From a bacterium (GTDB lineage Bacteria > Patescibacteriota > Minisyncoccia > UBA6257 > 2-01-FULL-56-20), in the NCBI GenBank assembly GCA_027310625.1, contig DAIDAM010000014.1:1-58920 (forward strand): DNA of 58,920 bases, read 5' to 3'. Positions 18,995-58,920 of this stretch are shown one piece after another. Position numbers and translations under genes: made by a program. Below the pieces are notes generated by a model, which did no database searches, was not told the origin of the DNA, and saw only the letters and a list, made by a program, of their open reading frames with translations. Positions within the stretch are counted from its first letter, which is position 1; each line of letters opens with the position of its first letter.

Positions 18995-19046
18995 AAAACT
19001 GATGTCAGATGACAGCGAGATTGAGAAAACGACATTGATAATGAGT

Positions 19047-19084
19047 TACTATTATTTAGTCACAATTGTGATATAATTATAGTA
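19047..19084. repeat. P38 palindrome
   Basis: Sequence is tactattatttagtcacaattgtgatataattatagta. Confidence 0.8.
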
Positions 19085-19116
19085 AATCATAAAATCAAAT
19101 CCCGCGATTCAAAACA

Positions 19117-19150
19117 CAAAGAGCGCTATGACTAGTCATAGCGCTCTTTG
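19117..19150. terminator. Perfect 34-bp palindrome (P22 family CGCTATGACTAGTCATAGCG); likely bidirectional terminator
   Basis: Sequence is caaagagcgctatgactagtcatagcgctctttg, lying between convergent genes. Confidence 0.6.
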
Positions 19151-19240
19151 ATTGTACTCACCTAAATTCACTACTTTTGTACCGAACTTAGGTGAAGCTT
19201 GGTCGGGCAACTGCTTTCCAGACCAAGCTCTGCTTCCGCC

Positions 19241-19840
19241 TCAGGTGAAGTACAGCCGCGCGGCGGCGAGTGCCCACACGAGCGCAATTCCTCCTCCGAC
19301 CTGCATTTTCCCCTGCGTTTCCAAAGTCCAGCGCTTGCTGAACTTTGCGGCGCCGAGGAAAAAGAATGGCGTTAGCAGGAGAGACATCATGACGATGTCG
19401 AACTTGGACACCGGCGGATTGGTCAGGCCAAAGTAGACCACGCCGAACGTCCAAATCACAGCAACCGCGAATAGCCCGTGAATCCATCCCGCGACGGTTG
19501 TGGTTCCGTCATGCGTGTGCGCCTCCGGCGTTACCTTGCCGCCCTCCTGATACATATAGCCAAGGGCGAGCGACGCGGCCAGCGCAATCGCGAGGATCAC
19601 GAAACTCCATGCCGACGACCAGTCCATGCGGTACTTGCCCATGAAGTAGGCGACCATAGGCGAAATCACAAACACATCTGCCCACATCCCGCCGTGCTCC
19701 ATGAAGGACCAGCCGTTCGTCACGCCGCGCGACTGCATCTGCGCCTGCGTGAGGTAGCCGTCAAGCCATGCCGCAATACCCTGCACGACGACCAGCGCTA
19801 CCCCCACGAGGAGGATTGCGAGGAAGATTTTCCAGTCCAC
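19241..19840 (-). CDS. GC-rich integral membrane protein, unknown function
   Basis: GTG start preceded by AAAGGAG. The product has several hydrophobic, Trp-rich helices. Third codon positions are strongly G/C-biased, unlike the neighbouring genes. Confidence 0.6.
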   Translation of the reverse strand: MDWKIFLAILLVGVALVVVQGIAAWLDGYLTQAQMQSRGVTNGWSFMEHGGMWADVFVISPMVAYFMGKYRMDWSSAWSFVILAIALAASLALGYMYQEGGKVTPEAHTHDGTTTVAGWIHGLFAVAVIWTFGVVYFGLTNPPVSKFDIVMMSLLLTPFFFLGAAKFSKRWTLETQGKMQVGGGIALVWALAAARLYFT

Positions 19841-19922
19841 GACCGACTCCTTTATTCATTTGTTTTTGGCGCTCAGCAAATCGTCACAATGACGAACTGC
19901 CAGCCAAAATAAAGCTAATAAA

Positions 19923-19950
19923 AGTGTACCACGAAATAGAAAAAAGTCAA
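19923..19950 (-). promoter_or_regulatory. Candidate sigma70-type promoter TTGACT-N16-TACACT
   Basis: Minus-strand reading of 19923-19950, upstream of the GC-rich membrane gene. Confidence 0.4.
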
Positions 19951-19986
19951 GGATTCCGGTACAAAGCAAGTGAACCGATTGAGCGT

Positions 19987-20024
19987 TACTATAATATAAT
20001 CACAATTGTGATATAATTATAGTA
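19987..20024. repeat. P38 palindrome between divergent genes
   Basis: Sequence is tactataatataatcacaattgtgatataattatagta. The right arm contains TGATATAAT. Confidence 0.8.
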
Positions 20025-20104
20025 ATTAGTTACTAGTTATCAGTTATCAGGGATTAGCGACTAATAATAAGATAACGGAAACTAAAAGCCGGTGACTATA
20101 AAGA

Positions 20105-22040: not shown

Positions 22041-22069
22041 TTGACCCGATTTATCGGTTGTTTTAGGAT
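22041..22069 (+). promoter_or_regulatory. Candidate promoter TTGACC-N17-TAGGAT
   Basis: Upstream of the GC-rich ORF at 22164. Confidence 0.4.
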
Positions 22070-22163
22070 TTTTTAATCGGACCCAAGGGGTAAGAGTAAT
22101 CACGAGGATACGGTCTGATAGGCAGCTATTTGTCAAAACCCACTGACTGGAAAGGGAACGAAA

Positions 22164-22748
22164 GTGAATAGGATAACGACTCTGGTAGTTGGGCCACTGG
22201 TCGAGCAGAAGGTGAAGGAGCTGGCCGGGCTTTTTCTGAAGGAGGTTCTGAAGAGCGGCGGGAAGCTCGTGTGGCATCCGCGGAAGGTTCTGAAGTACTA
22301 CGACCTCCACCCGTGGAAGAAGATCTGGGAAATGAAAATCGGAGAGAACGAGAAAGGAGAGATCGTTTTATCCGGCGGTCCGATTTACCTCACTGTTGTG
22401 GAGGCAGAAAGACCCGACGCGGTCGTGGATCGTCAAGGTGTTCTCCTTGTGCAGTTCGTCGATATGCGGAAGTCGATCAGTATCGAGAGTGATAGCAACG
22501 GGAATCCCGTGTTGAACATTTCCTTACACGTGAAGCCGTCCCACATGCGGGGCATCGTGCACCAGCTGATCGCCGATCACGTGGTCAACGGGAGGACTGA
22601 AGAGTACATTATGGCCGGCAGGAGAGCGGTTGAGAACGAAAAACGACGAAAGGCCGACGAGGACGAAAAACGGCGAAGGGCCGAGCGGAGGGCGGAGAGA
22701 ACAGAACGGAAACGTGAAGAAGCGAGGCATCGCCTCTACCCCCAGTAG
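22164..22748 (+). CDS. GC-rich hypothetical protein with Lys/Arg/Glu-rich C-terminal tail
   Basis: GTG start. The last ~45 aa are AVENEKRRKADEDEKRRRAERRAERTERKREEARHR. A terminator follows the gene. Confidence 0.5.
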   Translation: MNRITTLVVGPLVEQKVKELAGLFLKEVLKSGGKLVWHPRKVLKYYDLHPWKKIWEMKIGENEKGEIVLSGGPIYLTVVEAERPDAVVDRQGVLLVQFVDMRKSISIESDSNGNPVLNISLHVKPSHMRGIVHQLIADHVVNGRTEEYIMAGRRAVENEKRRKADEDEKRRRAERRAERTERKREEARHRLYPQ

Positions 22749-22765
22749 TTCCGGCAGGGTTCAGC

Positions 22766-22798
22766 AAGGAACCGCAGTTGCGGTTCCTTTCCATTTTT
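22766..22798 (+). terminator. Intrinsic terminator
   Basis: Stem aaggaaccgc, loop agtt, stem gcggttcctt, then tccattttt. Confidence 0.6.
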
Positions 22799-24130: not shown

Positions 24131-24715
24131 ATGGCGTCAAAATTTGAGTGCGAAGTTAGATTTGAAATAAAAGGTATTGGGGAATATATGAAAAAACTCA
24201 AGGACCTCGGCGGCGAATTGAAATATTCGTACGAATTTACCGATTTTTATTACGAGCCGAAAAATGAAAGGTGGAATCCGGTTGAAAAAAATCTTCGCAT
24301 AAGAGAATGGGTAAATCCAAAAAATCCGACAAAGATATTCTTCGTGAAGAGTGAAATCGTATCGTCGGGAAAAATTCATTTTAAAAGGGCTGTCTATGCT
24401 GAGGGAAAAGTGCCTTTGTATGAAGGGGAAATTAGTTTGTGCAGGTCTTTGCTGGAAGATTTGGGATTTAAAGAATGGCTCGTCGTCAAAAAAGAAAAAG
24501 CTGAATTTTGGTCTTTGCCTAAGCACGGTTTCGATACTGTTTTTGAATATATTGATGACGTCGGCTGGAGCGGCGAGTTGGAATTCGAAGGAGAAAATAT
24601 TGAAGAAGCAGAGGAAAAAATTGTAAAAGCCCTCGGCGTGTTGGGCGTACCGATAAATTCTGCAAACTTTAAGCCGATTTCTGCAATAGTCGCCGAGAAG
24701 CGCGGGATTATTTAA
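24131..24715 (+). CDS. CYTH-domain protein (CyaB/ThTPase-like)
   Basis: The N-terminal ECEVRFEIK matches the ExExK CYTH signature. Size is ~190 aa. Confidence 0.65.
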   Translation: MASKFECEVRFEIKGIGEYMKKLKDLGGELKYSYEFTDFYYEPKNERWNPVEKNLRIREWVNPKNPTKIFFVKSEIVSSGKIHFKRAVYAEGKVPLYEGEISLCRSLLEDLGFKEWLVVKKEKAEFWSLPKHGFDTVFEYIDDVGWSGELEFEGENIEEAEEKIVKALGVLGVPINSANFKPISAIVAEKRGII

Positions 24716-24745
24716 CTCCTTCTTTCCAGCGCGCTACCCAGCGTT

Positions 24746-25330
24746 TTATCGTCCGGCGCGGGTAAATGGATTTTCCATGTCGAAAACCAATTTCGGTTCG
24801 ATGTTTATCCGGTCCGGTTCGATTCCGTATTTCATGTGGTAAACGTTCGTCACGGCGCAGAATAAAGCGTCTTTGTAATTGAAACCGAGCTTTTCTGAAA
24901 CGCGCTTAACTTCTTCTTCAGATTTACCTTCTACTTCGACGAACGGTTCGAGGAACGGCCATTCATCTATCGTTATTTCGGCGCCATCCAATTCCCAAAG
25001 CTCGCGTTTCGTTTCCTGATAATTTTTTCTGATGCAGCCGATGGTCTCCAGAAATTCCACAGTTTCATCAAAATCATTTACTTCAATGTAAGTTTCTTTT
25101 TGGTCGTGTATTTTGTCGCCGTCGCTTGCTTTCAGGCTGAGTGTTATTTTGTTTCCTTCGTCGCGGACGCGCAACCACGAATTTGCCGGCAGTCCTTTTA
25201 TCGGGGGATAAAGGTTTATCCGCCGCTGCAGAAATTCGGGGCGCAAAATCCGCGCGCCGGCTTTTTTCAACCGTTTGCGAACGTCGTCTTTATCCACGTT
25301 TAAAAAAGTGGCTTCGTATTCGATTTTCAT
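24746..25330 (-). CDS. CYTH-domain protein (second, convergent copy)
   Basis: N-terminal KIEYEATF plus alternating acidic/basic beta-strand motifs. Size is ~190 aa. Confidence 0.6.
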   Translation of the reverse strand: MKIEYEATFLNVDKDDVRKRLKKAGARILRPEFLQRRINLYPPIKGLPANSWLRVRDEGNKITLSLKASDGDKIHDQKETYIEVNDFDETVEFLETIGCIRKNYQETKRELWELDGAEITIDEWPFLEPFVEVEGKSEEEVKRVSEKLGFNYKDALFCAVTNVYHMKYGIEPDRINIEPKLVFDMENPFTRAGR

Positions 25331-29035: not shown

Positions 29036-30427
29036 TTACTTGAAACGCAAGGAGTCCCCCATAGCACTGAAAAGGTTGAGAAATGCATCGGAATCTGGTT
29101 TAATCTCGGCGACAAGTATTAGATCGTAAAGCACCCCTTTGTACCAGAAGACAAGTTCGCTATCTAGTGTCGGAACGCTGAATAGACGAAGCGAATCGTC
29201 CCCGTATAATATTGAATAAGTTTTCATACCGCGGGAAATAAGATACCTGCCTTTTTGTATCGGTACATAGTTGGGGGGAATTACTATGTCTGTTATGTTT
29301 TTCTTGATGTAGGGACCTAAGTAATTCTCCGGTACATTGGGCACGACGACTACTGTAACTATTTCCCGTAAATTATCGAGCACGCCCTCTTGAGGAGAAA
29401 TGAAGCTGACGCTGTAACTTTGGTCGCTTTGTATTGTGCTTGTGAATAAAGTCCATTGGTCGGGATATTTGATGTCGAATCCGGGGAACGAATATGATTG
29501 CGTAAGATATTGGCTTGTGTTTGTCGCGTTCGACGGCGGCGGAGAATAAATTGCTTCACCCGTTAAGTTGTCCAAAAATTCTCTGATAAAACCAGCGGAA
29601 ATAGAAAATGCAAGATTCCCGCCGCTTTCAAATGTCGCCTTAACGGGGATACCGTAATTACAACCTCTCGTGCTTACGACTATTCCCCCAGAATTACCAG
29701 CATTGGCACTCGCCGAAATTTTGGTAAAATCTCCGGAAAATCCGCTCACAACTCCGTCAGTGAGCGTGATGGATTTTCCTCCGGTTTTGGGGTAGCCGAG
29801 AAGATATACTTTCTCGCCGATTTCGATGGTTTTTTGAGGGCATAGCTCTTTGAATGTATCGTAGGGGTTCGGCTTATCCGGCGGAAAGGGGTATGTTTGT
29901 TCAATTCCCAGGAGGGTTGATGACGACAATAGTAGCTGAGCGTAATCGAGCCCATGAATTTTCTCTCCGCCCACAACAGACTCAGATTTGTCATAGGCCC
30001 ACACTTTTTGCACGCTGTAAACCGAGTCATAAAAACTGCCGTCTGGTCTCGGAAAATATACGTTGCACCCGTGAAATTCCCCGTCCTTGCCAATAACTAC
30101 ATGCGCGGCAGTTTCAACCATTGGCGCCCCCGTGTCATCGGTGTAATATAGACCGCTTCCAATTTGCGTTTCTGGTCCTCCTTCAACATCAGAGCATCCG
30201 ACCTGAACAACTGAAGGGAGAATTTTTTGTCTAACTATGGACAATATTTCACTTTCAGAGAGATTTACTTCTTTATACGCCCGATAATAGTAATATCCTC
30301 CAAGCGATAGCAGCAAAATAATACTGATTGCTAACAAAAAAACCTTCCAAGAAAAATTTGGAGTCCTCGGAGGAATAGGTTGGGGTTGTGCGATTTTTAA
30401 TTTTTCCGGGACATCGGGCATATTCAA
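29036..30427 (-). CDS. membrane-anchored trypsin-like serine protease with C-terminal domain of unknown function
   Basis: N-terminal TM helix, TAAHVV (His region) and GNSGGIVV (Ser region). Confidence 0.6.
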   Translation of the reverse strand: MNMPDVPEKLKIAQPQPIPPRTPNFSWKVFLLAISIILLLSLGGYYYYRAYKEVNLSESEILSIVRQKILPSVVQVGCSDVEGGPETQIGSGLYYTDDTGAPMVETAAHVVIGKDGEFHGCNVYFPRPDGSFYDSVYSVQKVWAYDKSESVVGGEKIHGLDYAQLLLSSSTLLGIEQTYPFPPDKPNPYDTFKELCPQKTIEIGEKVYLLGYPKTGGKSITLTDGVVSGFSGDFTKISASANAGNSGGIVVSTRGCNYGIPVKATFESGGNLAFSISAGFIREFLDNLTGEAIYSPPPSNATNTSQYLTQSYSFPGFDIKYPDQWTLFTSTIQSDQSYSVSFISPQEGVLDNLREIVTVVVVPNVPENYLGPYIKKNITDIVIPPNYVPIQKGRYLISRGMKTYSILYGDDSLRLFSVPTLDSELVFWYKGVLYDLILVAEIKPDSDAFLNLFSAMGDSLRFK

Positions 30428-30435
30428 AGTTTAAT

Positions 30436-31350
30436 CTACAGCCAGCGTTTGTTTTTGAAAAAGACAAGCATTGTAAGAACCGCGGCGGTCATCGCGCCGG
30501 CAATCAGCCAAAAGCCGTTCGGGTCGTTTGCGAGCGGCACGCCGCCGACGCGCATCGCAAAAAGCGCGGCGACAAGCACGAGAGGAAATGTCAGAAAAGC
30601 GAGGATGGTGAACATTTTCATCACATTCGTCGTTCTTGCGTTCAAGAGCTGGTTGTTCGTCGCCTCAAAGTCCAGTATTGCTTCGCGGTGGTAATCGAGC
30701 CGCGCGAGAAGTTTCAAATATTTCCCGAGCAAGTCCTCCGTGTAGATTTTGCTCTGCGGCCCCCAGAAACTTTCTCCTCTTTGGATGAAGGAAGAAAAAA
30801 GATGCTGCTGCGGTTTTGCAATCAGCTGATACTCTGAAAGGTCGCGTTTCACGTAGGAAATTTTTTTGAGAAGTTCGTTCTCCTTTCCTTTGAAGAGCTC
30901 CGAGCCGATGGCTTCGGTTTTTTCCTGAATGTGGTTGAGCTGGCGCTGGTTGAAGTTTATGAGGTGGGCGAGTAAGCGGTGGGCGAGCTCGAGCGTCGTT
31001 TCGGGAAAAATCCTTTTGCCTACCCCGAGCCGCATCGAGGGGTCTAATTCCTTCTTGAAATCGGCGAAAACGTTTTCGCTGTCGTAGCGGACGGTCACCA
31101 AGTCCTTTTTAGTAATGATAAAATCGATTTCCGCGCGGCGGGAAATTTTTTCGGCCGGGTCGTATATCGGGAAATGGTAAATAAGATAAAGATAATTGTC
31201 GGAGTACTCCACTCTGCCGTGAATGGAGTGATTCTTAAGTTCGTCTATTACAATCGGATGCAGGCCGAACTTTTTTTGCAGCCATTCAAGGTCTTCGCCC
31301 GCCGGCTTGACTATGTTTATCCACTTTATTTTTCCGCCTTTTATTTCCAT
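30436..31350 (-). CDS. CorA-family divalent cation transporter-like protein (GMN motif replaced by AMR)
   Basis: CorA-like architecture with two C-terminal TM helices and a terminal KNKRWL. The loop motif reads FAMRVGGVP where CorA has YGMNFxxMP. Confidence 0.7.
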   Translation of the reverse strand: MEIKGGKIKWINIVKPAGEDLEWLQKKFGLHPIVIDELKNHSIHGRVEYSDNYLYLIYHFPIYDPAEKISRRAEIDFIITKKDLVTVRYDSENVFADFKKELDPSMRLGVGKRIFPETTLELAHRLLAHLINFNQRQLNHIQEKTEAIGSELFKGKENELLKKISYVKRDLSEYQLIAKPQQHLFSSFIQRGESFWGPQSKIYTEDLLGKYLKLLARLDYHREAILDFEATNNQLLNARTTNVMKMFTILAFLTFPLVLVAALFAMRVGGVPLANDPNGFWLIAGAMTAAVLTMLVFFKNKRWL

Positions 31351-31403
31351 ATTTTATCAATTTTATATCAAGCCGGTTTCTAGGGCAATTTTTACGTAGT
31401 GCT

Positions 31404-31444
31404 AAAAACAGAAAACCCGCCGAAGCAGATTCTCTGCCGGCGGG
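31404..31444 (-). terminator. Intrinsic terminator
   Basis: On the minus strand: cccgccg stem, loop, cggcggg stem, followed by ttttctgttttt. Confidence 0.65.
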
Positions 31445-31447
31445 CAA

Positions 31448-31786
31448 CTAGTTGCCGGACGATTTGCCGAAGCAAATGCTCAGACCTTTGTTGCGGGCGC
31501 CGCATGCGATCGCGAGTTTCGCTGCCTGCGTGTCTGTTGCGTAGACCCTGATTTCCTGGTGCGAGGTGTTGTCTCTCACCGAGAGGAGAATACTTCCTCC
31601 GTCGTCAGTGATTTTCACCCGTCTGCTGCCGTGCACCGAGTGAAGCCCCGCCTTTATGAAACCAGGAGATATTCTTGTAACGCTAGGACACGTGTGCGCG
31701 ATGTCGCATACGACAGCCGCCGCCGGAATGACGGTCGTATGGCCGCCCCCATACTTCCCACCCGACCTTGAGCCCTTGTCGCTCAT
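31448..31786 (-). CDS. GC-rich small protein, possibly DUF2103-like metal-binding protein
   Basis: ATG at 31786 preceded by AAGGAGG. The sequence GGHTTVIPAA...VTRISPGFIK...RRVKITDDGGSILLSVRDNTSHQEIRVY recalls DUF2103. This is from memory and unverified. Confidence 0.45.
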   Translation of the reverse strand: MSDKGSRSGGKYGGGHTTVIPAAAVVCDIAHTCPSVTRISPGFIKAGLHSVHGSRRVKITDDGGSILLSVRDNTSHQEIRVYATDTQAAKLAIACGARNKGLSICFGKSSGN

Positions 31787-31814
31787 AACGCCTCCTTGTT
31801 GTTGACCTGTGCAG

Positions 31815-31843
31815 ATATTACAATCTAATGTAATATTTGTCAA
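31815..31843 (-). promoter_or_regulatory. Candidate promoter TTGACA-N17-TAATAT
   Basis: Minus-strand reading. The -10 ends about 28 nt upstream of the ATG at 31786. Confidence 0.5.
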
Positions 31844-31919: not shown

Positions 31920-33047
31920 ATGGAAAACAAAAACTCAAAAACCGCGCTGCTCGAAGCCATCAAGGACGAAATTTCCACCGTTCGTTTCCGCGAGGGCGAA
32001 ATCGTGGAAGCGGAACTGATTCGCAAAACCCCCCGCGGCGCGTTCTTCGATTTGGGCAAACTCGGCACGGGAATCGTCTACGGCGCGGAGCTCTCCAACG
32101 CCCGCGACATCGTAAAAAAATTGAACGTCGGCGACAAAGTTTCCGCGCGCGTCGAGACCATCGACGGCGAAGGCGGCTACGTCGAACTTTCGCTCGCCGA
32201 AGCCGGTAAGCAAAAACTTTGGCAACAGGCGCAGGAACTTCAGGAAAACGGGGAAGTGGTAAAGGTTAAAATAACCGGCGCGAACCAGAGCGGACTTCTC
32301 GCCGACCTGCTCGGCTTGAAGGCGTTCCTGCCGCTTTCGCAGCTCTCGCAGGAGCATTATCCAAAAACGACTCCGACCGAAGCATCGGAGCAAAAAAGTT
32401 CCGATTTCTTGAAGAATTTAATCGGGCAGGAAGTTGGCGTGAAAGTCATCGCCGTCAATCCGCGCGCGAACAAACTGATTATTTCAGAACGTGAAATTCT
32501 CGCGGCGAACGTTAAAGAACTTCTCAATGCTTACAAAGTCGGTCAGGATGTGGACGGCATCGTTTCCGGTATCGCCGATTTCGGAATTTTCGTGAGGTTC
32601 GTTGACAATCCGCAGATTGAGGGGCTCGTCCACATTTCCGAAATTGACCACCGCATTATTGACAATCCGAAAGAAGTCGTCGCCATCGACCAACCGGTGA
32701 AAGTGAGAATCATAGACATCAAAGACGGCCGGGTGTTTCTTTCCATCAAAGCGCTGAAAGAAGACCCGTGGCAGAACGTTTCGGAACGCTACAAAGCCGG
32801 ACAGGAAGTCGGCGGCAAAGTTTACAAATTCAATCCCTTCGGCGCCGTGATAGATCTTGAGGGCGGCTTTCAGGGATTGATTCACATTTCCGAATTCGGC
32901 GGCGCGGAGGAAATGAAAAAAGCGCTGATGCTGAATTCACTCTCCCAACTTTCGCCAGCCGAAAGTTCGGAGAGCAAGCTGCACAAGTTTGTGATTGATT
33001 CCGTCAAACCGGAGGAGAAGAGGATAATACTGAAGATGAAGAAGTGA
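31920..33047 (+). CDS. rpsA: 30S ribosomal protein S1 (short form)
   Basis: Repeated S1 OB-fold motifs (GEIVEAELI, GEVVKVKITG, GQDVDGIVSGIADFGIFVRF, GQEVGGKVYKFNPFGAVIDL). The ATG at 31920 is chosen because the upstream part of the track ORF has no homology. Confidence 0.85.
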   Translation: MENKNSKTALLEAIKDEISTVRFREGEIVEAELIRKTPRGAFFDLGKLGTGIVYGAELSNARDIVKKLNVGDKVSARVETIDGEGGYVELSLAEAGKQKLWQQAQELQENGEVVKVKITGANQSGLLADLLGLKAFLPLSQLSQEHYPKTTPTEASEQKSSDFLKNLIGQEVGVKVIAVNPRANKLIISEREILAANVKELLNAYKVGQDVDGIVSGIADFGIFVRFVDNPQIEGLVHISEIDHRIIDNPKEVVAIDQPVKVRIIDIKDGRVFLSIKALKEDPWQNVSERYKAGQEVGGKVYKFNPFGAVIDLEGGFQGLIHISEFGGAEEMKKALMLNSLSQLSPAESSESKLHKFVIDSVKPEEKRIILKMKK

Positions 33048-33112
33048 TCTGGAAATTAGGCACATAGGCAATTGGGAATTGAAAACGCCGTTTGTTTCGG
33101 TGTTTTTTGCAA

Positions 33113-33141
33113 ACAAAAAACCCGCGTCATATGACTGCGGG
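33113..33141 (-). terminator. Intrinsic terminator
   Basis: On the minus strand: cccgcagtcatatgacgcggg followed by ttttttgtttg. Confidence 0.6.
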
Positions 33142-33182
33142 GAGCAGCTGGTCTGCTCAGTCCTTGTTGCCGTTGCTCTGGG

Positions 33183-33518
33183 TCACGCGGTGATTTTTCT
33201 CGTCGGTATCTCGAATGCGATGTAGACAGCCGAGAACCACAAGAGAACCCCCATGCTCCAGATGAGCATGCCGGGCAAGACACCCCACGTACTCACTGCG
33301 GGCCACGAGGCTGCGTAGAGCGCGAGTCCACCGACCGACAGAGTAGCGGTCATCCACCCGTCGAACGTGCGGAGAGTGAACAGCAAAACAGCGAGTGCCG
33401 TTACCACAGGGGCGAGCGGCTCGATGATCTTGAGGAAGAGAACGAAGATGAACGCCACCGCAGCAACCATGGCCACCACTTGAACGACTTCGAAGCCACG
33501 GCGAATGAACCTCATCAT
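33183..33518 (-). CDS. GC-rich small membrane protein (about 3 TM helices), unknown function
   Basis: A 111-aa hydrophobic ORF with a GGGAGA Shine-Dalgarno site and visibly GC-rich codons. Confidence 0.5.
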   Translation of the reverse strand: MMRFIRRGFEVVQVVAMVAAVAFIFVLFLKIIEPLAPVVTALAVLLFTLRTFDGWMTATLSVGGLALYAASWPAVSTWGVLPGMLIWSMGVLLWFSAVYIAFEIPTRKITA

Positions 33519-33573
33519 GATATGTCTCCCGTTTTGATTGCAGCTGCGGGATTACAGCTGCATTACTTTGGAT

Positions 33574-33602
33574 AAGGTAACATATTTATGAGATTCTGTC
33601 AA
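33574..33602 (-). promoter_or_regulatory. Candidate promoter TTGACA-N17-TACCTT
   Basis: Minus-strand reading, upstream of 33518. Confidence 0.35.
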
Positions 33603-33703
33603 GCGAGTTTAGATTAAGAAAATAAAGGGGCGGACTAGCGTTTTCTTTTTTCGTATTTTCCGCTTAACATTGAAGTATTGAATAAAGTGAAATGGTTCAT
33701 TCG

Positions 33704-33729
33704 CTCATTCGCGCGAATGGTGGAATGAG
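33704..33729. repeat. 26-bp hairpin element CTCATTCGCGCGAATGGTGGAATGAG
   Basis: An identical 26-mer occurs at 58343-58368, and a variant at 44020-44041. Confidence 0.75.
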
Positions 33730-34576
33730 AAAAAGCAAACCAAAATACGTAATCGGTATTGATAAGGTGGGTCGTGCCGCCCCAAAAGGGCGGGCCTCTC
33801 GCCTCGCTGGAGCTAAGGCGAAGCGGACGCCCCGTAAATATGTAATTGGTATCGACGAGGTGGGGCGGGGCGCTCTCGCGGGGCCGGTGGTCGTGGCGGC
33901 GGTTTGTTTTCCGACAAAATTGAGAGTGCGGAACGCGGAACTCGGCGCGTTGAAGGATTCCAAAAAGCTTTCGCCGAAGGCGCGCGAACGCTGGCTCGAA
34001 CATTTTAAAACTGTTCCCGAAATATTATCGCGAACAGCCAGAGTTTATCCGCGAAAAATAGAAAAAATAAACATCTCGCAGGCGGCAAACCGCGCCGCAA
34101 CTTCGGCGCTGGAACGCGTCATCGAATCCGTTTTCGCCAGTAGGACAAAAAAACATTCTAACATTCTGCAGAATGTTAGAATGTTCAAATCTATGCCGGG
34201 AACAAACTATTCTAATATTCTTAAGAATATTAGAATAGATATTTTTCTTGATGGGGGATTGTATTTAACGAATAAAATTAATCCTTCGATAAACTTCCTT
34301 CGACACGGCTCAAGACAAGCAGGGCGAATGATTGTCAAAACAATCATTCGGGGCGACGAGAAAATCGCCGCCATCAAAATCGCTTCCATCATCGCCAAAG
34401 TGCAGAGGGACAAGTATATGAAAAAACTTTCCCGAAAATATCCGCGCTATGACTTTGAGATGCACAAGGGATACGGGACAAAAATGCACCGCAGGGCCAT
34501 CAGAAAACACGGGCCTAGCGAAGTTCATAGATTGACGTTCTTGAAGAAATCCCATAGAATTGCTAATAGCAAATAG
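33725..34576 (+). CDS. rnhB: ribonuclease HII
   Basis: IGIDEVGRGALAGPVV (the catalytic DE motif) and a C-terminal HKGYGTKMHRRAI. The start is uncertain (33692 or 33725). The N-terminal KYVIGID(K/E)VGR is duplicated and the gene contains two P32-type inserts. Confidence 0.85.
   Translation: MRKSKPKYVIGIDKVGRAAPKGRASRLAGAKAKRTPRKYVIGIDEVGRGALAGPVVVAAVCFPTKLRVRNAELGALKDSKKLSPKARERWLEHFKTVPEILSRTARVYPRKIEKINISQAANRAATSALERVIESVFASRTKKHSNILQNVRMFKSMPGTNYSNILKNIRIDIFLDGGLYLTNKINPSINFLRHGSRQAGRMIVKTIIRGDEKIAAIKIASIIAKVQRDKYMKKLSRKYPRYDFEMHKGYGTKMHRRAIRKHGPSEVHRLTFLKKSHRIANSK
34154..34183. repeat. P32 variant (CTGCAG centre) in frame in rnhB
   Basis: Sequence is cattctaacattctgcagaatgttagaatg, read as HSNILQNVRM. 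Confidence 0.75.
34207..34238. repeat. P32 perfect copy in frame in rnhB
   Basis: Sequence is ctattctaatattcttaagaatattagaatag, read as YSNILKNIRID. Confidence 0.85.
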
Positions 34577-41296: not shown

Positions 41297-41336
41297 AAAA
41301 CACCGCTATGACAAGTCATAGCGGTGTTTTGGTTTT
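41297..41336 (+). terminator. P22-family hairpin terminator of rplL
   Basis: Sequence aaaacaccgctatgacaagtcatagcggtgtttt is followed by ggtttt. Confidence 0.65.
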
Positions 41337-41425
41337 GATAGCTGGCGCGATGTTTACAGCAAGCGCGAGTTCGGCAGGCAAGAGAGACATGGAGAAATTG
41401 CCGCCGAGCGCGTAGAGAATGAAAT

Positions 41426-41463
41426 TACTATCATCATATCACAATTGTGATTATATGATAGTA
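41426..41463. repeat. P38 palindrome (between convergent genes)
   Basis: Sequence is tactatcatcatatcacaattgtgattatatgatagta. Confidence 0.8.
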
Positions 41464-44347: not shown

Positions 44348-45286
44348 TTATTTTCTTCGCCTTCCGTGAAAAGTTTTATGAATCTCGCGCAATTCCTTGT
44401 TGGTGAGGTGAGTGTAAATCTGCGTCGTGGAAATGTTGGAATGGCCGAGGAGCGATTGCACGGAGCGCAAATCGGCGCCGTTCATCAATAAGTCCGTCGC
44501 AAACTGATGGCGCAGCTGGTGGGGCGTAATGTGTTCTGCAATTCCCGCTTTTCTGCCGTAAAAATTCACCAGACGCTGAACGGCGCGGGGAATGATGCGA
44601 CCTATCACTTTGACTGGTCTCTTGTCGCCGGTCGCTTTGGTTAAACTCACGAACAACGCTTCGTCCGCGTCCGTCCGCTTGCCCAGATAATTTTTAATCG
44701 CTTTTTTGGCGCGGTCGGAGAGAAAAACGACGCGCAGTTTGTCGCCTTTGCCGCGGACGGTGATTTCTCCGCGAGCCAAATCAATGTAGCGGCTGAGCGA
44801 ACATAATTCCGAAATGCGGAGGCCGGTTGAAAAAAACGTTTCGAGAATCGCTTTGTCGCGGAGTGAGCGCAAATCCGAGCCGCTCGGCGCCGAAAGCAAG
44901 CGCTCAAGGTCGCCGTATTCGATTATGGAAATCTGGCGGCTCGGCGCTTTCGGCAGTTCGATTTTTTCGGCGGCGAGAGTTTCGATGTCGCGTTTGGTGA
45001 GATATTTTAAAAAATTTCTGATGGCGATGACGTAATAATTCTGCGTGATTTTTTTCAATGGACGGGCTCGCCCTCCCAAGTGTTTTTCCGAAAAATTTGG
45101 GCGGGCGAGCGCGAGGCGGAAATTTCTGACGGCGGCGTCCGTTATGTCGGAAGGAGATTTTATTTTCGCGGCGGATATGAATTCCTTCAGGTAATGCTCA
45201 TAACTTTCCCGCGTCTTCGGCGAGCGGTTTCGTTCAATTTCCAAATAATTCAAATAATCGGTTAAGAATTTTTGTATGTCAGTCAT
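44348..45286 (-). CDS. tyrosine recombinase, XerC/XerD-like
   Basis: N-terminal SAM-like domain (YLEIERNRSPKTRESYEHYL), then RDKAILETFFSTGLRISEL, HQLRHQFATDLL, and LLGHSNISTTQIYTH (the R..HxxR..Y catalytic set). Confidence 0.9.
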   Translation of the reverse strand: MTDIQKFLTDYLNYLEIERNRSPKTRESYEHYLKEFISAAKIKSPSDITDAAVRNFRLALARPNFSEKHLGGRARPLKKITQNYYVIAIRNFLKYLTKRDIETLAAEKIELPKAPSRQISIIEYGDLERLLSAPSGSDLRSLRDKAILETFFSTGLRISELCSLSRYIDLARGEITVRGKGDKLRVVFLSDRAKKAIKNYLGKRTDADEALFVSLTKATGDKRPVKVIGRIIPRAVQRLVNFYGRKAGIAEHITPHQLRHQFATDLLMNGADLRSVQSLLGHSNISTTQIYTHLTNKELREIHKTFHGRRRK

Positions 45287-45693: not shown

Positions 45694-45722
45694 TTGACCT
45701 TTTCTATTTTTCATGTTATTTA
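45694..45722 (+). promoter_or_regulatory. Candidate promoter TTGACC-N17-TATTTA
   Basis: Upstream of the GC-rich ORF at 45787. Confidence 0.4.
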
Positions 45723-45786
45723 TTGCTTATGCGGCCGGGGATTGGCTCTGGTCGCAAAACCCGCATGATGCCAAAGGAGGCGCGCG

Positions 45787-46149
45787 ATGGGTAGCAATTT
45801 GTCACATGAACTTCTGGACGCAGAATTCCTCTGTGCGTTTGGCACAGTGGAATATATAAGGGGCTACAAATACTACGTAGGCCGGGGAACGTCGTTAACA
45901 TACGACACTAATAACGGCGTTCTCGCAGTTTACGACGAGGAAGGTCGTCCGTGGGTTACCAAGTTTGTCAATCCCCACAAGAACGATCCCACCGTAATTT
46001 CAGGTTCTGATGAATGGCTGGGGCGACTGTGCAAGGAATACAGGCTCCGCCGCGGGGCGCATGTTCCGCACTCTAACGATGGAGGGCGCTTCATGAATTC
46101 CATCCTTCCTAATCTCCAAAACTTGCCTCTTATAACAGTGCCGCTCTAA
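45787..46149 (+). CDS. GC-rich hypothetical protein
   Basis: A 120-aa ORF with an AAGGAGG Shine-Dalgarno site 6 nt upstream and a terminator downstream. No motif was recognised. Confidence 0.45.
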   Translation: MGSNLSHELLDAEFLCAFGTVEYIRGYKYYVGRGTSLTYDTNNGVLAVYDEEGRPWVTKFVNPHKNDPTVISGSDEWLGRLCKEYRLRRGAHVPHSNDGGRFMNSILPNLQNLPLITVPL

Positions 46150-46174
46150 GGCGACATTATCCGGCAGAATTTCT

Positions 46175-46207
46175 CCCGCCACGCTGAAAGGCTTGGCGGG
46201 TTTTTGC
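46175..46207 (+). terminator. Intrinsic terminator
   Basis: Stem cccgcc, loop, stem ggcggg, followed by tttttgc. Confidence 0.6.
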
Positions 46208-57080: not shown

Positions 57081-58280
57081 TTACTTCATCACCTTCCACA
57101 AGAGCGGGTCCTGTTCGCCATCCAGTTTGAAAAACGCGACGCCGCGGAGTCCCATTTTTTTGGCGATGGCTATCGCATTGGCGGCGGAACGCGAGTCGGT
57201 AAACGAAACGAAGCGCGTGTAAAGCCCCTGCGCGCTGGTGGAAGCGATGAAAGCGGGAATGGTTGAGGTTATATTCCACGTCAAGACGGACGACACTCCG
57301 CCGTACTCCTCAATAGAAGTGCTCGTGGCGTAAGCGAAACTCAATTCGCCGGCGCTGTTCGGCATCGGAATCGCGCCGACTTTCACGGCTCTGTCCAAGG
57401 CCTGGAAGAAAGTGTGGCTGCGGAGGCGTTTGTACGTTGTGTAGCCGTCTTTCCAACTTACTTCGTATTCGTAGCCGTAGGTCGGAATCCCGAGCATTAT
57501 TTTTTTCGGGCTGATGTATTTCAGGGCCTCCTGAATTGTTTTCTTCGCCCACTCCGGGTCGGAAACGGGAGCATAGAGCGTTCCGTTGCCCTTTTTGCCG
57601 TCAAGTTTTCCGTCAACGAGCCCCTGGTCGTAAGCCATTATGCGCACCTCGTCGCAGTACTTGTTGAGAATTTTATAATCGTTTGCGACTCTCGTATCGT
57701 CGGGCACGCCGTTGGTCACAACACTGAGAAGGTCATTCAGCGGCGTTCTTGCTTCCACCGTGCAGGAAAGAATTTTTCCGAGCGGACGAAGACGGAGCGA
57801 GAGACCGTAAATGAAAGTTGAAAAATAATCCTTCGTTTCCGGCAGTTTCGATTCGTAATCAATGTCTATGCCGCCAAATTTCATGTCCTTCACAAGTTTC
57901 GCGATGGCGTCCTCGTGGGCGATTCTCTTTTTTTTGTCTTTGAGGAGATTCTGAATCGCCGGACCGTCAAACCAGGCAATCGTGGGAATAATCTTGACCT
58001 TCGCATCTTTCACGGCTTTGAGCCACACGGGCCAAAATCCTTCCGTAAGCTTGAGTTTATCAACCAGGGTTCCATCGGATTTAACCTCATAAGAAAAAGG
58101 GCTTAATTCCTGAAATTTATAAAGATTGCCCGAAATGTCCTGCGCTCCGTCCTGTTTTTTCCAAAACGGCAGCCAACCGGCGTAGTAAAATTGTTGCGTT
58201 GCAGCAAATCCTGTGGACGCAGTTAAAAATGAAATTCCAAAAAGAATGAAAATAAGAATCGCCGCTCGCTTTACAAACAT
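57081..58280 (-). CDS. secreted glycoside hydrolase family 18 (chitinase-like)
   Basis: A signal peptide and FGGIDIDYE (the DxxDxDxE catalytic motif). Confidence 0.8.
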   Translation of the reverse strand: MFVKRAAILIFILFGISFLTASTGFAATQQFYYAGWLPFWKKQDGAQDISGNLYKFQELSPFSYEVKSDGTLVDKLKLTEGFWPVWLKAVKDAKVKIIPTIAWFDGPAIQNLLKDKKKRIAHEDAIAKLVKDMKFGGIDIDYESKLPETKDYFSTFIYGLSLRLRPLGKILSCTVEARTPLNDLLSVVTNGVPDDTRVANDYKILNKYCDEVRIMAYDQGLVDGKLDGKKGNGTLYAPVSDPEWAKKTIQEALKYISPKKIMLGIPTYGYEYEVSWKDGYTTYKRLRSHTFFQALDRAVKVGAIPMPNSAGELSFAYATSTSIEEYGGVSSVLTWNITSTIPAFIASTSAQGLYTRFVSFTDSRSAANAIAIAKKMGLRGVAFFKLDGEQDPLLWKVMK

Positions 58281-58342
58281 ATTTTGTATTATGCCTCTTG
58301 ATGGATATTTATAGCAAGAAGTATCGATTCAAAGTCTATGTC

Positions 58343-58368
58343 CTCATTCGCGCGAATGGTGGAATGAG
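58343..58368. repeat. 26-bp hairpin element CTCATTCGCGCGAATGGTGGAATGAG
   Basis: Identical to 33704-33729. Confidence 0.75.
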
Positions 58369-58410
58369 GAGTACTTGCGATGATGATGAAATAAAGCGGA
58401 AATTTTGCAA

Positions 58411-58472
58411 ATAAAAGGCCACCTCCTTTTTTCGTCTGCCTCTTGTCAGACGCTCTTTCGAGAGAGGTGGCC
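58411..58472 (-). terminator. Long hairpin terminator
   Basis: Stem ggccacctc (58417-58425) pairs with gaggtggcc (58464-58472). On the minus strand the hairpin is followed by ttttat. Confidence 0.45.
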
Positions 58473-58532
58473 TCTTCTTGCTTTACCGGCTATCGGCCGA
58501 CATCGGCCGATGCCGGTGCCCGCGCGCAGCGG

Positions 58533-58691
58533 CTAGGCGGTGTTGCCCTGGTTGTTGTCGCCCGAGGCGCCGATCTGGTCGGTGATCGAATTGACGTTGA
58601 CGATCAAACCCTCCTGAGTCTGCGGCTTGCCCGGATTGCCGGCGAGTTGGGCGTTGATGTCCTTCGGGGGTGCTGCGGTGCTCCGTTTCAT
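58533..58691 (-). CDS. GC-rich 52-aa hypothetical peptide
   Basis: ATG at 58691 preceded by AAGGAG. The product is MKRSTAAPPKDINAQLAGNPGKPQTQEGLIVNVNSITDQIGASGDNNQGNTA. The two longer overlapping track ORFs are in other frames and lack start signals. Confidence 0.35.
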   Translation of the reverse strand: MKRSTAAPPKDINAQLAGNPGKPQTQEGLIVNVNSITDQIGASGDNNQGNTA

Positions 58692-58745
58692 GACGGCTCC
58701 TTTCTGGTTGAGCGCCCCATGCCGCTACTTCAGGGTGCTGGCGCC

Positions 58746-58774
58746 ATAGTAACATATACCAGCAAATAATGCAA
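58746..58774 (-). promoter_or_regulatory. Candidate promoter TTGCAT-N17-TACTAT
   Basis: Minus-strand reading, upstream of 58691. Confidence 0.4.
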
Positions 58775-58823
58775 ATCATCGTTATGGTTCAATAGCTTGG
58801 AAACACCCATCATCGTTTAGACT

Positions 58824-58920
58824 ATGAAAATGGCATATTCAAAAAATCCCTACCTGCCGCGCGTGCGTCGAGACGCAGCGGACCTGGTACGAAGAGGGTG
58901 GGGCGTTAGAAGGGTGGCGA
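58824..58920 (+). CDS. N-terminal fragment of an HTH protein, possibly a transposase (continues beyond window)
   Basis: MKMAYSKNPYLPRVRRDAADLVRRGWGVRRVA resembles the HTH N-termini of IS481/IS3-type transposases. Only 32 codons are visible. Confidence 0.3.
   Translation, partial: MKMAYSKNPYLPRVRRDAADLVRRGWGVRRVA

Follow-up and report, generated by a model that had tools for sequence, protein, structure and literature searches.

Single-gene units with their own promoters and terminators in intergenic slots of a Patescibacteria genome

We analysed a stretch of 58,920 nucleotides (hereafter, the window), which is contig C14 (DAIDAM010000014.1) of a Patescibacteria genome assembly of 766 kb, 21 contigs and ~48% GC. 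A preliminary description of this DNA had singled out six small open reading frames (ORFs) as self-contained cassettes with G/C-rich third codon positions. All six ORFs were confirmed at their coordinates in the window. We consider it probable that five of the six are single-gene units gained horizontally by the species lineage. Each unit, with its own sigma-70-type promoter, Shine-Dalgarno site and intrinsic terminator, would have landed in an intergenic slot of an otherwise collinear backbone, and such a promoter-to-terminator block could be expressed wherever it lands. The source would be the accessory gene pool of the Patescibacteria. The features are listed below, with lengths in amino acids (aa) and GC3 as the G+C fraction at third codon positions; ORFs carry the number of their cassette.

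19241-19840, minus strand: cassette 1 ORF (ORF1), 199 aa, predicted six-helix membrane protein with conserved His/Asp, GC3 0.78
19923-19950, minus strand: cassette 1 promoter, TTGACT, N16, TG-extended TACACT
Within 19838-19853, minus strand: cassette 1 Shine-Dalgarno site, AAGGAG
19110-19150, minus strand: cassette 1 terminator hairpin, one copy of the genome-specific palindrome CGCTATGACTAGTCATAGCG
19045-19085: P38 palindrome left of cassette 1
19985-20025: P38 palindrome right of cassette 1
22041-22798, plus strand: cassette 2, with promoter 22041-22069, ORF 22164-22748 and terminator 22766-22798
22164-22748, plus strand: cassette 2 ORF (ORF2), 194 aa, charged K/R/E tail, GC3 0.70
31404-31843, minus strand: cassette 3, with promoter 31815-31843, Shine-Dalgarno site AAGGAGG and terminator 31404-31445
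31448-31786, minus strand: cassette 3 ORF (ORF3), 112 aa, DUF2103, GC3 0.68
33090-33605, minus strand: cassette 4, whole conserved unit, with promoter 33574-33602, hairpin 33142-33158 and terminator 33114-33142
33183-33518, minus strand: cassette 4 ORF (ORF4), 111 aa, small membrane protein, GC3 0.74
45694-46206, plus strand: cassette 5, with promoter 45694-45722, Shine-Dalgarno site AAGGAGG and terminator 46175-46206
45787-46149, plus strand: cassette 5 ORF (ORF5), 120 aa, GC3 0.545
58413-58774, minus strand: cassette 6, with promoter 58746-58774, Shine-Dalgarno site AAGGAG and terminator 58413-58473; adjoins an insertion-sequence copy that starts at 58780
58533-58691, minus strand: cassette 6 ORF (ORF6), 52 aa, GC3 0.85

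Absence from relatives and empty sites

The genome was compared with 40 relatives, namely four same-genus (G001-G004), 20 same-family and 16 same-order genomes. All were searched by protein or DNA comparison, and the syntenic regions were examined in the four same-genus genomes. None of the six ORFs was found in the 40 relatives, save for a 28-31% identical homologue of ORF2 in the same slot in G003 and a 49% identical homologue of ORF5 in one same-order genome. From the gene of a PD-(D/E)XK nuclease to past that of RNase HII, the backbone is collinear with the same-genus genomes at 55-90% amino-acid identity. This synteny comparison covers cassettes 1-4; for cassettes 5 and 6 absence was established by search. 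The neighbours of the cassettes are housekeeping genes, e.g. those of ribosomal protein S1 (rpsA), RNase HII, CorA, YchF and GrpE.

Empty sites for cassettes 1, 3 and 4 exist in same-genus genomes, and cassette 2 occupies a variable slot. The site of cassette 1, between a 108-aa gene and a PEBP-family gene, measures 0-7 bp in G004 and G002 and 1110 bp here. Similarly, the gap between rpsA and the RNase HII gene, which holds cassette 4, is ~100 bp long in G004 and G002 and 645 bp here. Cassette 3 lies between the genes of CorA and S1, in front of rpsA (31350-31809 in the window; the same slot was viewed at L012, L013, L014 and L015). This slot is empty in G001 and carries four different single-gene units in the window, G004, G002 and G003. 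A terminator of ~45 nt (AAAACAGAAAnCCCGCCGAAGCAGATT...) is common to the window and G004 and the ORFs next to it are unrelated, which suggests, as far as the sequences go, that the payload may have been swapped beside a kept terminator.

The slot of cassette 2, between the genes of a DUF763 protein and YchF, holds a distant ORF2 homologue in G003, and another, somewhat GC-rich unit in G004 and G002. About half of the synonymous codons of that other unit have changed between G004 and G002, the same as in the backbone, and its GC3 is still 0.62 and 0.66 versus 0.45-0.54 for the backbone. In the DUF763-YchF cassette of two sister genomes (L012:6462-7089 and L016:7895-8485) a TTGACA...TATAGT promoter is kept, and a conserved leader of ~130 nt, which may be regulatory, precedes a fast-evolving 144-aa ORF with 63% amino-acid identity versus 76-92% for the backbone.

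The proposal that the six ORFs are accessory or acquired and not native thus holds up: they are missing from four same-genus and 36 other relatives, the backbone is collinear, empty sites exist and, as described next, codon choice is atypical.

Base composition and codon choice

Gene calls were proxied by a greedy set of the longest non-overlapping ORFs. Across the whole genome, ORFs of at least 150 aa have a mean GC3 of 0.550 with a standard deviation of 0.080. To account for amino-acid composition, z-scores of GC3 were computed by drawing each codon from the genome's own usage. ORF1 ranks fourth from the top in the genome (GC3 0.78, z 5.0) and ORF2 is a clear outlier (0.70, z 4.4). High values were also obtained for ORF4 (0.74, z 2.9) and for ORF6 (0.85, z 4.0), the latter being only 52 aa long. 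ORF3 is only mildly raised (0.68, z 2.1), and ORF5 is not GC-rich (0.545, z -0.9). Atypical composition or codon usage was therefore seen in 19241, 22164, 33183 and 58533, weakly in 31448 and not in 45787. Given the genome value of 0.55 +/- 0.08, the claim of G/C-rich third positions in all six ORFs stands for most of them, fails for 45787-46149 (0.545) and is true in a mild form for 31448-31786.

GC-ending codons could also mark native, highly expressed genes that follow the translational bias of the genome. Long native genes such as those of GroEL and CTP synthase indeed have a raised GC3 (0.66-0.70), and the cassettes have strong promoters and Shine-Dalgarno sites. However, codon choice differs in kind. 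Genes of the GroEL and CTP synthase type as well as the bulk genes prefer AAA/GAA (about 65-70%; ~65% in the native high-GC3 genes), and ATA makes up 27% of the Ile codons in native high-GC3 genes. In contrast, the cassettes, together with ~7 similar ORFs elsewhere in the genome, use 64-80% AAG/GAG and 7-10% ATA. The contrast in Lys/Glu codons is significant for two ORFs, ORF2 (25 AAG+GAG versus 13 AAA+GAA, p = 8e-6) and ORF1 (p = 0.0045), and the remaining ones contain too few such codons for a comparison. Since the cassettes invert the AAA/GAA preference, their composition is not a stronger version of the native codon bias. The per-codon likelihood under the genome's own usage is also low for ORF2 (18th percentile) and ORF4 (7th percentile). 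Together with the absence from 40 of 40 relatives (apart from the two homologues mentioned above) and the existing empty sites, this makes native, highly expressed genes a highly improbable explanation.

Five more ORFs of the compositional class of cassettes 1 and 2 occur in the genome (C10:74940-75785, C21:3923-4507, C21:16661-17086, C19:3259-4113 and C16:10792-11520); their GC3 is 0.72-0.85 and their share of AAG/GAG 63-87%. Pfam returned no match for any of them, and several contain signal-peptide-like or membrane segments.

Genes that are unique to this genome and GC-poor were found in the same stretch, at 24131-24715 (GC3 0.41) and 29036-30427 (GC3 0.44). Three ORFs in 24131-25330 and 29036-30427 are missing from the sister syntenic regions, and their GC3 is poor or average (0.41, 0.51 and 0.44); the one at 24746-25330 weakly resembles CYTH / class IV adenylate cyclase. 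The variable DNA of the window departs from the backbone in both directions, and the preliminary description picked the GC-rich share of it.

Promoters, Shine-Dalgarno sites and terminators

All six -35/-10 pairs were found exactly where they had been placed. The underlying pattern, TTGAC[ACT] or TTGCAT followed by N16-17 and TAnnnT, has only 65 matches on both strands of the 766-kb genome, and only 22 of 779 ORFs have it 15-160 nt upstream. ORFs with a GC3 of at least 0.70 are enriched in it (5/20 versus 17/759; Fisher p = 1.3e-4). Shine-Dalgarno sites and intrinsic terminators are likewise present as described, the former weaker in cassettes 2 and 4 than in the other four, where they are strong, the latter consisting of a hairpin and a T-run.

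The ORF4 family and the extent of the transferred unit

ORF4, a 111-aa membrane protein with several hydrophobic segments, has homologues in only four protein clusters (57-69% identity). Nucleotide alignment of the family revealed conservation from the -35 box (GCTTGAC) through to the terminator. The conserved block includes a TG-extended -10, the Shine-Dalgarno site, the ORF, a hairpin (GAGCAGACCAnCTGCTC) and the terminator CCCCGC...GCGGGTTTTTT. Two copies, at L047 and L029, resemble each other over only ~590 bp and show no relationship across the flanking 6 kb on each side. The ORF4 unit is a promoter-to-terminator block of ~0.5-0.6 kb in unrelated contexts, located at ~33090-33605 in the window. 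As the similarity between L047 and L029 is limited to this block, what is transferred is the transcription unit as a whole. For cassette 4 the alignments thus directly show a promoter-to-terminator block as the unit of transfer, and the same may be presumed of the other cassettes.

We then compared gene and host composition in the seven genomic contexts of the ORF4 family. Five copies have GC3 values of 0.81, 0.81, 0.85, 0.80 and 0.74 in hosts of about 0.35, 0.46, 0.34, 0.59 and 0.55, respectively, and two copies are lower, at 0.59 (host 0.25) and 0.52 (host 0.47). Judged by these sequences, the GC-richness of the ORF4 family may not be a donor signature at all.

The ORF1 family

ORF1 had been described as a Trp-rich multi-pass membrane protein, in agreement with its 10 Trp among 199 residues and with the six membrane helices predicted by AlphaFold2. 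We identified 64 homologues, all of ~200 aa, with 40-62% identity; the few informative labels are Paceibacterota or Patescibacteria. Residues Q20, D27, G28, H49, G51, H110, G118, F167 and W171 are invariant in the family alignment, which also contains the motifs EHGGMWAD, PEAHTHDG and GWIHG. Substitutions at codon positions 1, 2 and 3 number 54, 38 and 122, and this pattern indicates a protein under purifying selection and thus a real gene. With the family alignment as input, AlphaFold2 modelled the six helices with a predicted local distance difference test (pLDDT) score of 97.3. Neither a sequence profile search nor Foldseek returned a relative of ORF1 in the PDB (top Foldseek hit with E = 1.3 and TM-score <0.35). 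The order of the helices places the conserved His, Asp and Gln residues at helix ends and in loops 1, 3 and 5, predicted to be on the same side of the membrane. Because these residues are predicted to face one side, ORF1 might be a metal-binding membrane enzyme or transporter.

The family is very rare. Of ~185,000 species genomes 12 carry it, under the labels Saccharibacteria, Paceibacterota, Taylorbacteria and Thermoanaerobaculia, and an even sampling of 400 other Patescibacteria genomes across the phylum turned up no copy. On contigs with adequate flanks the copies stand alone, with their own TG-extended -10 promoter and terminator, and their neighbours mostly differ between loci. At 19 loci the gene GC3 is 0.62 +/- 0.13, while host GC3 ranges from 0.22 to 0.79; gene and host values do not track each other (slope 0.27, r 0.36, n = 19). 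The copies are richer than AT-rich hosts (L005, 0.69 versus 0.27; L006, 0.75 versus 0.28) and poorer than two Thermoanaerobaculia hosts (0.50 versus 0.75 and 0.53 versus 0.79). Adjustment to the host was seen at L027 (0.27 versus 0.24) and, in part, at L025 (0.41 versus 0.22). Synonymous sites between copies are near saturation.

In metagenome-assembled genomes (MAGs) of 53-58% GC the GC3 of the ORF1-family gene agrees with that of the host, and flanking proteins there are 45-65% identical to those of this genome. These hosts are probably GC-richer Patescibacteria, so that a GC-richer donor within the same phylum is plausible for the 19241 family. The idea of a high-GC donor or host in the preliminary description therefore survives in part: the ORF1 family has GC-matched, Patescibacteria-like MAGs (53-58% GC), but a host organism is not indicated, and none of the seven host contexts of the ORF4 family has a GC3 like the ~0.8 of that gene. 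Taken together, the GC3 pattern of the ORF1 family would fit recurrent horizontal transfer, with a gradual approach to the host composition afterwards. The ORF1 homologues at L053 and L054 are syntenic (neighbours 45-74% identical) and probably inherited vertically; both keep a GC3 excess of 0.12-0.17.

On two Thermoanaerobaculia contigs (L021:489-1706 and L023:5425-6654) the ORF1 homologues form lower-GC islands, with GC3 of 0.50-0.55 versus 0.66-0.91 for the other ORFs. This suggests a move of the family from Patescibacteria into Acidobacteriota; alternatively, the contigs are mis-binned chimeras. The Thermoanaerobaculia copies lie within open frames of 405-409 aa. A fusion partner was considered as a clue to function and set aside: Pfam returned no match for the N-terminal half, and the long frame could be artefactual. 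On an AT-rich contig of the candidate phyla radiation (L005:9220-10720) the ORF1 homologue sits inside a GC-rich island of ~1.5 kb. The island includes a second GC-rich stretch with its own terminator and adjoins what looks by eye like a tRNA-like 3' end on the opposite strand.

Origin of the GC-rich composition

Under horizontal gain, the GC-rich codons would stem from a donor of the same phylum with a higher GC content, and the time since transfer would have been too short for a drift to the host composition. We take such a donor to be the most likely cause of the codon atypia, although only the 19241 family fits it reasonably well and the others leave it unproven. As for the route, DNA uptake may have been followed by illegitimate or homology-assisted recombination at insertion-tolerant intergenic slots, which we infer because no recombinase, terminal repeats or target duplications were found.

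Four observations weigh against this account. First, the cassettes of the window showed neither a mobility gene nor an attachment site, terminal repeat or target duplication. Second, none of the seven host contexts of the ORF4 family matches the composition of the gene (0.74-0.85 for five genes), and a GC-rich donor of this family is either unsampled or nonexistent. Third, the L053/L054 pair and the slot cassette of G004 and G002 retain their GC3 excess, which can thus last long; such retention would be compatible with slow host adjustment and also with maintenance. Fourth, given the poor resolution and the long terminal branches of the family trees, donors and the direction of transfer cannot be named. 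For the same reason, donor inference from a family tree was abandoned.

Alternatively, the units could be mobile and accessory with a GC-richness that is intrinsic to the cassettes and maintained wherever they reside, instead of being a donor mark. Possible causes are GC-biased gene conversion in often-recombining genes, or selection for stable, well-translated mRNA made from insulated units with strong promoters. Such a property would account for a GC3 of ~0.8 in the ORF4 family in five of seven hosts, each of which is at or below 0.59, with no matching host among them; as no composition-matched host was sampled for this family, we retain the alternative. It would also account for the ORF1 family, whose GC3 is 0.5-0.78 across hosts of 0.22-0.79, above AT-rich and below GC-rich hosts with synonymous sites near saturation, for the excess retained by syntenic pairs, and for a canonical -35 promoter motif that is rare in the genome and enriched upstream of GC-rich ORFs. 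However, copies at L027 (0.27 versus 0.24), L051 (0.52 versus 0.47) and L025 (0.41 versus 0.22) have drifted fully or largely to the host, which shows that the excess is not obligatory. GC-matched hosts do exist for ORF1, and slow drift towards the host could still account for the divergence of the syntenic pairs, in which ~45-50% of synonymous codons have changed. On balance, we regard an intrinsic GC-richness as possible, though doubtful.

A broader and more tentative idea is that insulated single-gene expression units circulate in a pool common to the Patescibacteria, and that the units themselves maintain their GC-richness, which would then be no mark of a donor. In each unit a small envelope-protein ORF would be preceded by a canonical -35/-10 promoter and a Shine-Dalgarno site and followed by a terminator. 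Its GC content would stem from GC-biased gene conversion in often-recombining DNA or from selection on mRNA stability and translation, and the same permissive slots would be recolonised without a dedicated recombinase. We hold this to be unlikely. Horizontal gain of single-gene units from within the phylum remains the explanation that we favour.

ORF2, ORF3, ORF5 and ORF6

The absence of any recognisable function, as originally noted, was borne out except for ORF3. ORF3 (31448-31786) matches DUF2103 (PF09876) with 40.7 bits versus a Pfam gathering cut-off of 22.4, over positions 4-86 of the 98 in the profile, and is a putative metal-binding protein of this family by sequence. Nothing else was matched in Pfam, NCBIfam, PHROGs or PADLOC, and none of the six products has a match among PHROG and PADLOC models. 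Of 301 Patescibacteria genomes sampled, 12 contain DUF2103, as do two archaeal controls, Haloferax and Methanosarcina; elsewhere in the Patescibacteria the homologues of ORF3 show no GC enrichment.

ORF2, ORF5 and ORF6 are near-orphans. Only three remote homologues of ORF2 (27-31% identity) exist among 1.8 billion representative proteins. The ORF5 homologue of the same-order genome (49% identity) has a GC3 of 0.70 versus ~0.5 for its host. ORF6 has no homologues, and its region is missing from the 40 relatives; it is a putative coding sequence, judged by its strong frame-specific GC3, the Shine-Dalgarno site and the terminator. A non-coding RNA in place of a protein was considered and rejected, as Rfam yields only two tRNAs in the window at the gathering score and no hit at E <= 1 in 58250-58920. 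Overall, the products are mostly small envelope proteins. With respect to carriage, searches found no relative of ORF1 in viral contigs, phages or plasmids, and none of ORF4 in viral contigs.

Repeats and recombination functions

As described before, cassette 1 lies between two P38 palindromes (19045-19085 and 19985-20025). P38 occurs in 18 copies in the genome, all of them intergenic and mostly on the 3' side of genes. The second palindrome, CGCTATGACTAGTCATAGCG, has 11 terminator-like copies, and one of these serves cassette 1 as its "terminator". Both palindromes are lacking in the four sister syntenic regions and at the ORF homologue loci elsewhere. By this distribution, both are native residents of the genome that resemble repetitive extragenic palindromes (REPs), and not cassette ends. 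P38 was accordingly dismissed as a cassette boundary or recombination site, being genome-specific and missing from every other locus. Among the six cassettes only two have P38 nearby, on both sides of cassette 1 and after cassette 2.

P38 (TTACTATnAT..ATCACAATTGTGAT..) and CGCTATGACTAGTCATAGCG co-occur 66-165 bp apart as a REP-like composite module, in the window at 19045-19150 and 41306-41450 and elsewhere at C16:23065-23143 and C20:7144-7325. P38 has TGnTATAAT on both strands.

The description of six uniform cassettes was overstated, since 45787-46149 is not GC-rich, GC-poor unique genes lie nearby, and P38 and the terminator of cassette 1 are native repeats.

An integron-like, site-specific capture, with P38 or the shared terminators as recombination sites, would agree with the position of P38 on both sides of cassette 1 and after cassette 2, and with the location of all four P38 copies of the compared stretch at junctions between backbone and strain-specific DNA. 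It would also agree with the slot between CorA and S1, where four genomes each carry a unit of their own, two of them with a terminator in common, and G001 carries none. However, cassettes 3 to 6 have no P38, and P38 is lacking in the sister genomes and at every homologue locus. The placement of P38 at junctions has a rough probability of ~0.09 by chance. In addition, the cassettes carry their own promoters, and no integron integrase was found: the tyrosine recombinase at 44348-45286, beside cassette 5, is Xer-like, with best matches to XerC and XerA, and scores 113.7 bits against the cut-off of 265 for the integron integrase TIGR02249. We therefore judge such capture to be very unlikely.

The last part of the contig, 58780-58920, consists of the initial 141 bp of a multi-copy insertion sequence; the ORF of this element begins MAYSKNPYLPRVRRDAADLVRRGW. 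The same insertion sequence is found at the ends of C2, C9, C10 and C18 and inside C16:34790-34918, and several other contigs close with a second common end, ...EYIPYYNGKRLH. It is at the insertion sequence that the assembly breaks.

Assembly check

Given a fragmented, metagenome-type assembly of 21 contigs, the cassettes might be assembly chimeras or contaminant fragments, the more so as 40-bp repeat copies flank cassette 1 and such repeats can mislead assemblers. Logan contigs from three independent runs are, however, 100% identical to the window over 32490-34177, which spans cassette 4, both of its junctions and both flanking genes. This independent support covers cassette 4; for ORF1 and the gene beside it, exact-protein look-ups brought up no further contigs. 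Cassette 1 is surrounded by genome-specific repeats (P38 and the CGCTATGACTAGTCATAGCG hairpin), which assigns the segment to this genome, and cassette 3 has its terminator in common with the same slot in a sister genome. Moreover, two false junctions would be required per cassette. A chimeric or contaminant origin can hardly be credited on these grounds.

Comparison with known systems

The type of event proposed here, horizontal transfer, is already known for Patescibacteria and not surprising as such. The window offers a nucleotide-resolved example of gene gain in streamlined, symbiotic-type bacteria with genomes of ~0.8 Mb. The mode of gain would be by expression-ready single-gene units in intergenic slots, with sister species carrying different units at the same slot. 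The analysis also flags two uncharacterised membrane-protein families, one of which combines a very confidently predicted fold and no PDB relative with an invariant His/Asp cluster. Finally, it raises the question of whether a host-independent GC-richness reflects recent arrival or a maintained property.

Integron cassettes themselves lack promoters and depend on a common promoter and an integron integrase. Together with clusters of attC sites without an integrase (CALINs), they resemble our cassettes as small single-gene units with variable content at a fixed slot and, in some cases, 3' palindromes. In contrast, the cassettes here have their own promoters, are dispersed and not arrayed, and lack both an integron integrase and an attC-like site common to families or genomes.

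Phage morons, a concept of Hendrix and Juhala, are reportedly units of promoter, gene and terminator inserted between conserved phage genes. They are alike in being autonomous units with their own promoter and terminator, in their deviant composition and in their position between genes that are adjacent in relatives. Our cassettes differ in that they are not in a prophage, have housekeeping neighbours and show no PHROG match. ORF1 and ORF4, the two families searched, have no relatives in viral or phage collections.

The amelioration model of Lawrence and Ochman deals with foreign genes that have not yet drifted to host composition. The deviation of third positions from the host agrees with it, and so do family members that range from far off to fully adjusted. 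Two points do not fit: no composition-matched donor was sampled for the ORF4 family, and vertically inherited pairs keep their excess. Recent arrival alone may therefore fail to explain the GC-richness.

With genomic islets the cassettes share atypical composition, empty sites and distant homologues in unrelated contexts (ORF1 and ORF4 families); a mobility gene, a tRNA target or flanking repeats, which are usual in islets and not obligatory, were not found at the window cassettes. The closest parallel are the individually transferred genes and islets of Patescibacteria, which gain individual genes by transfer, with 83% of events within the phylum (mSystems 2025, PMC12455944). Common to both are single-gene gain, mostly within the phylum, an atypical composition and a patchy distribution. 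Our cassettes differ from these islets in three respects: the unit is delimited at the nucleotide level, from promoter to terminator, at ~0.5-0.6 kb; the same intergenic slots carry different units across one genus; and the GC excess is independent of the host in two families.

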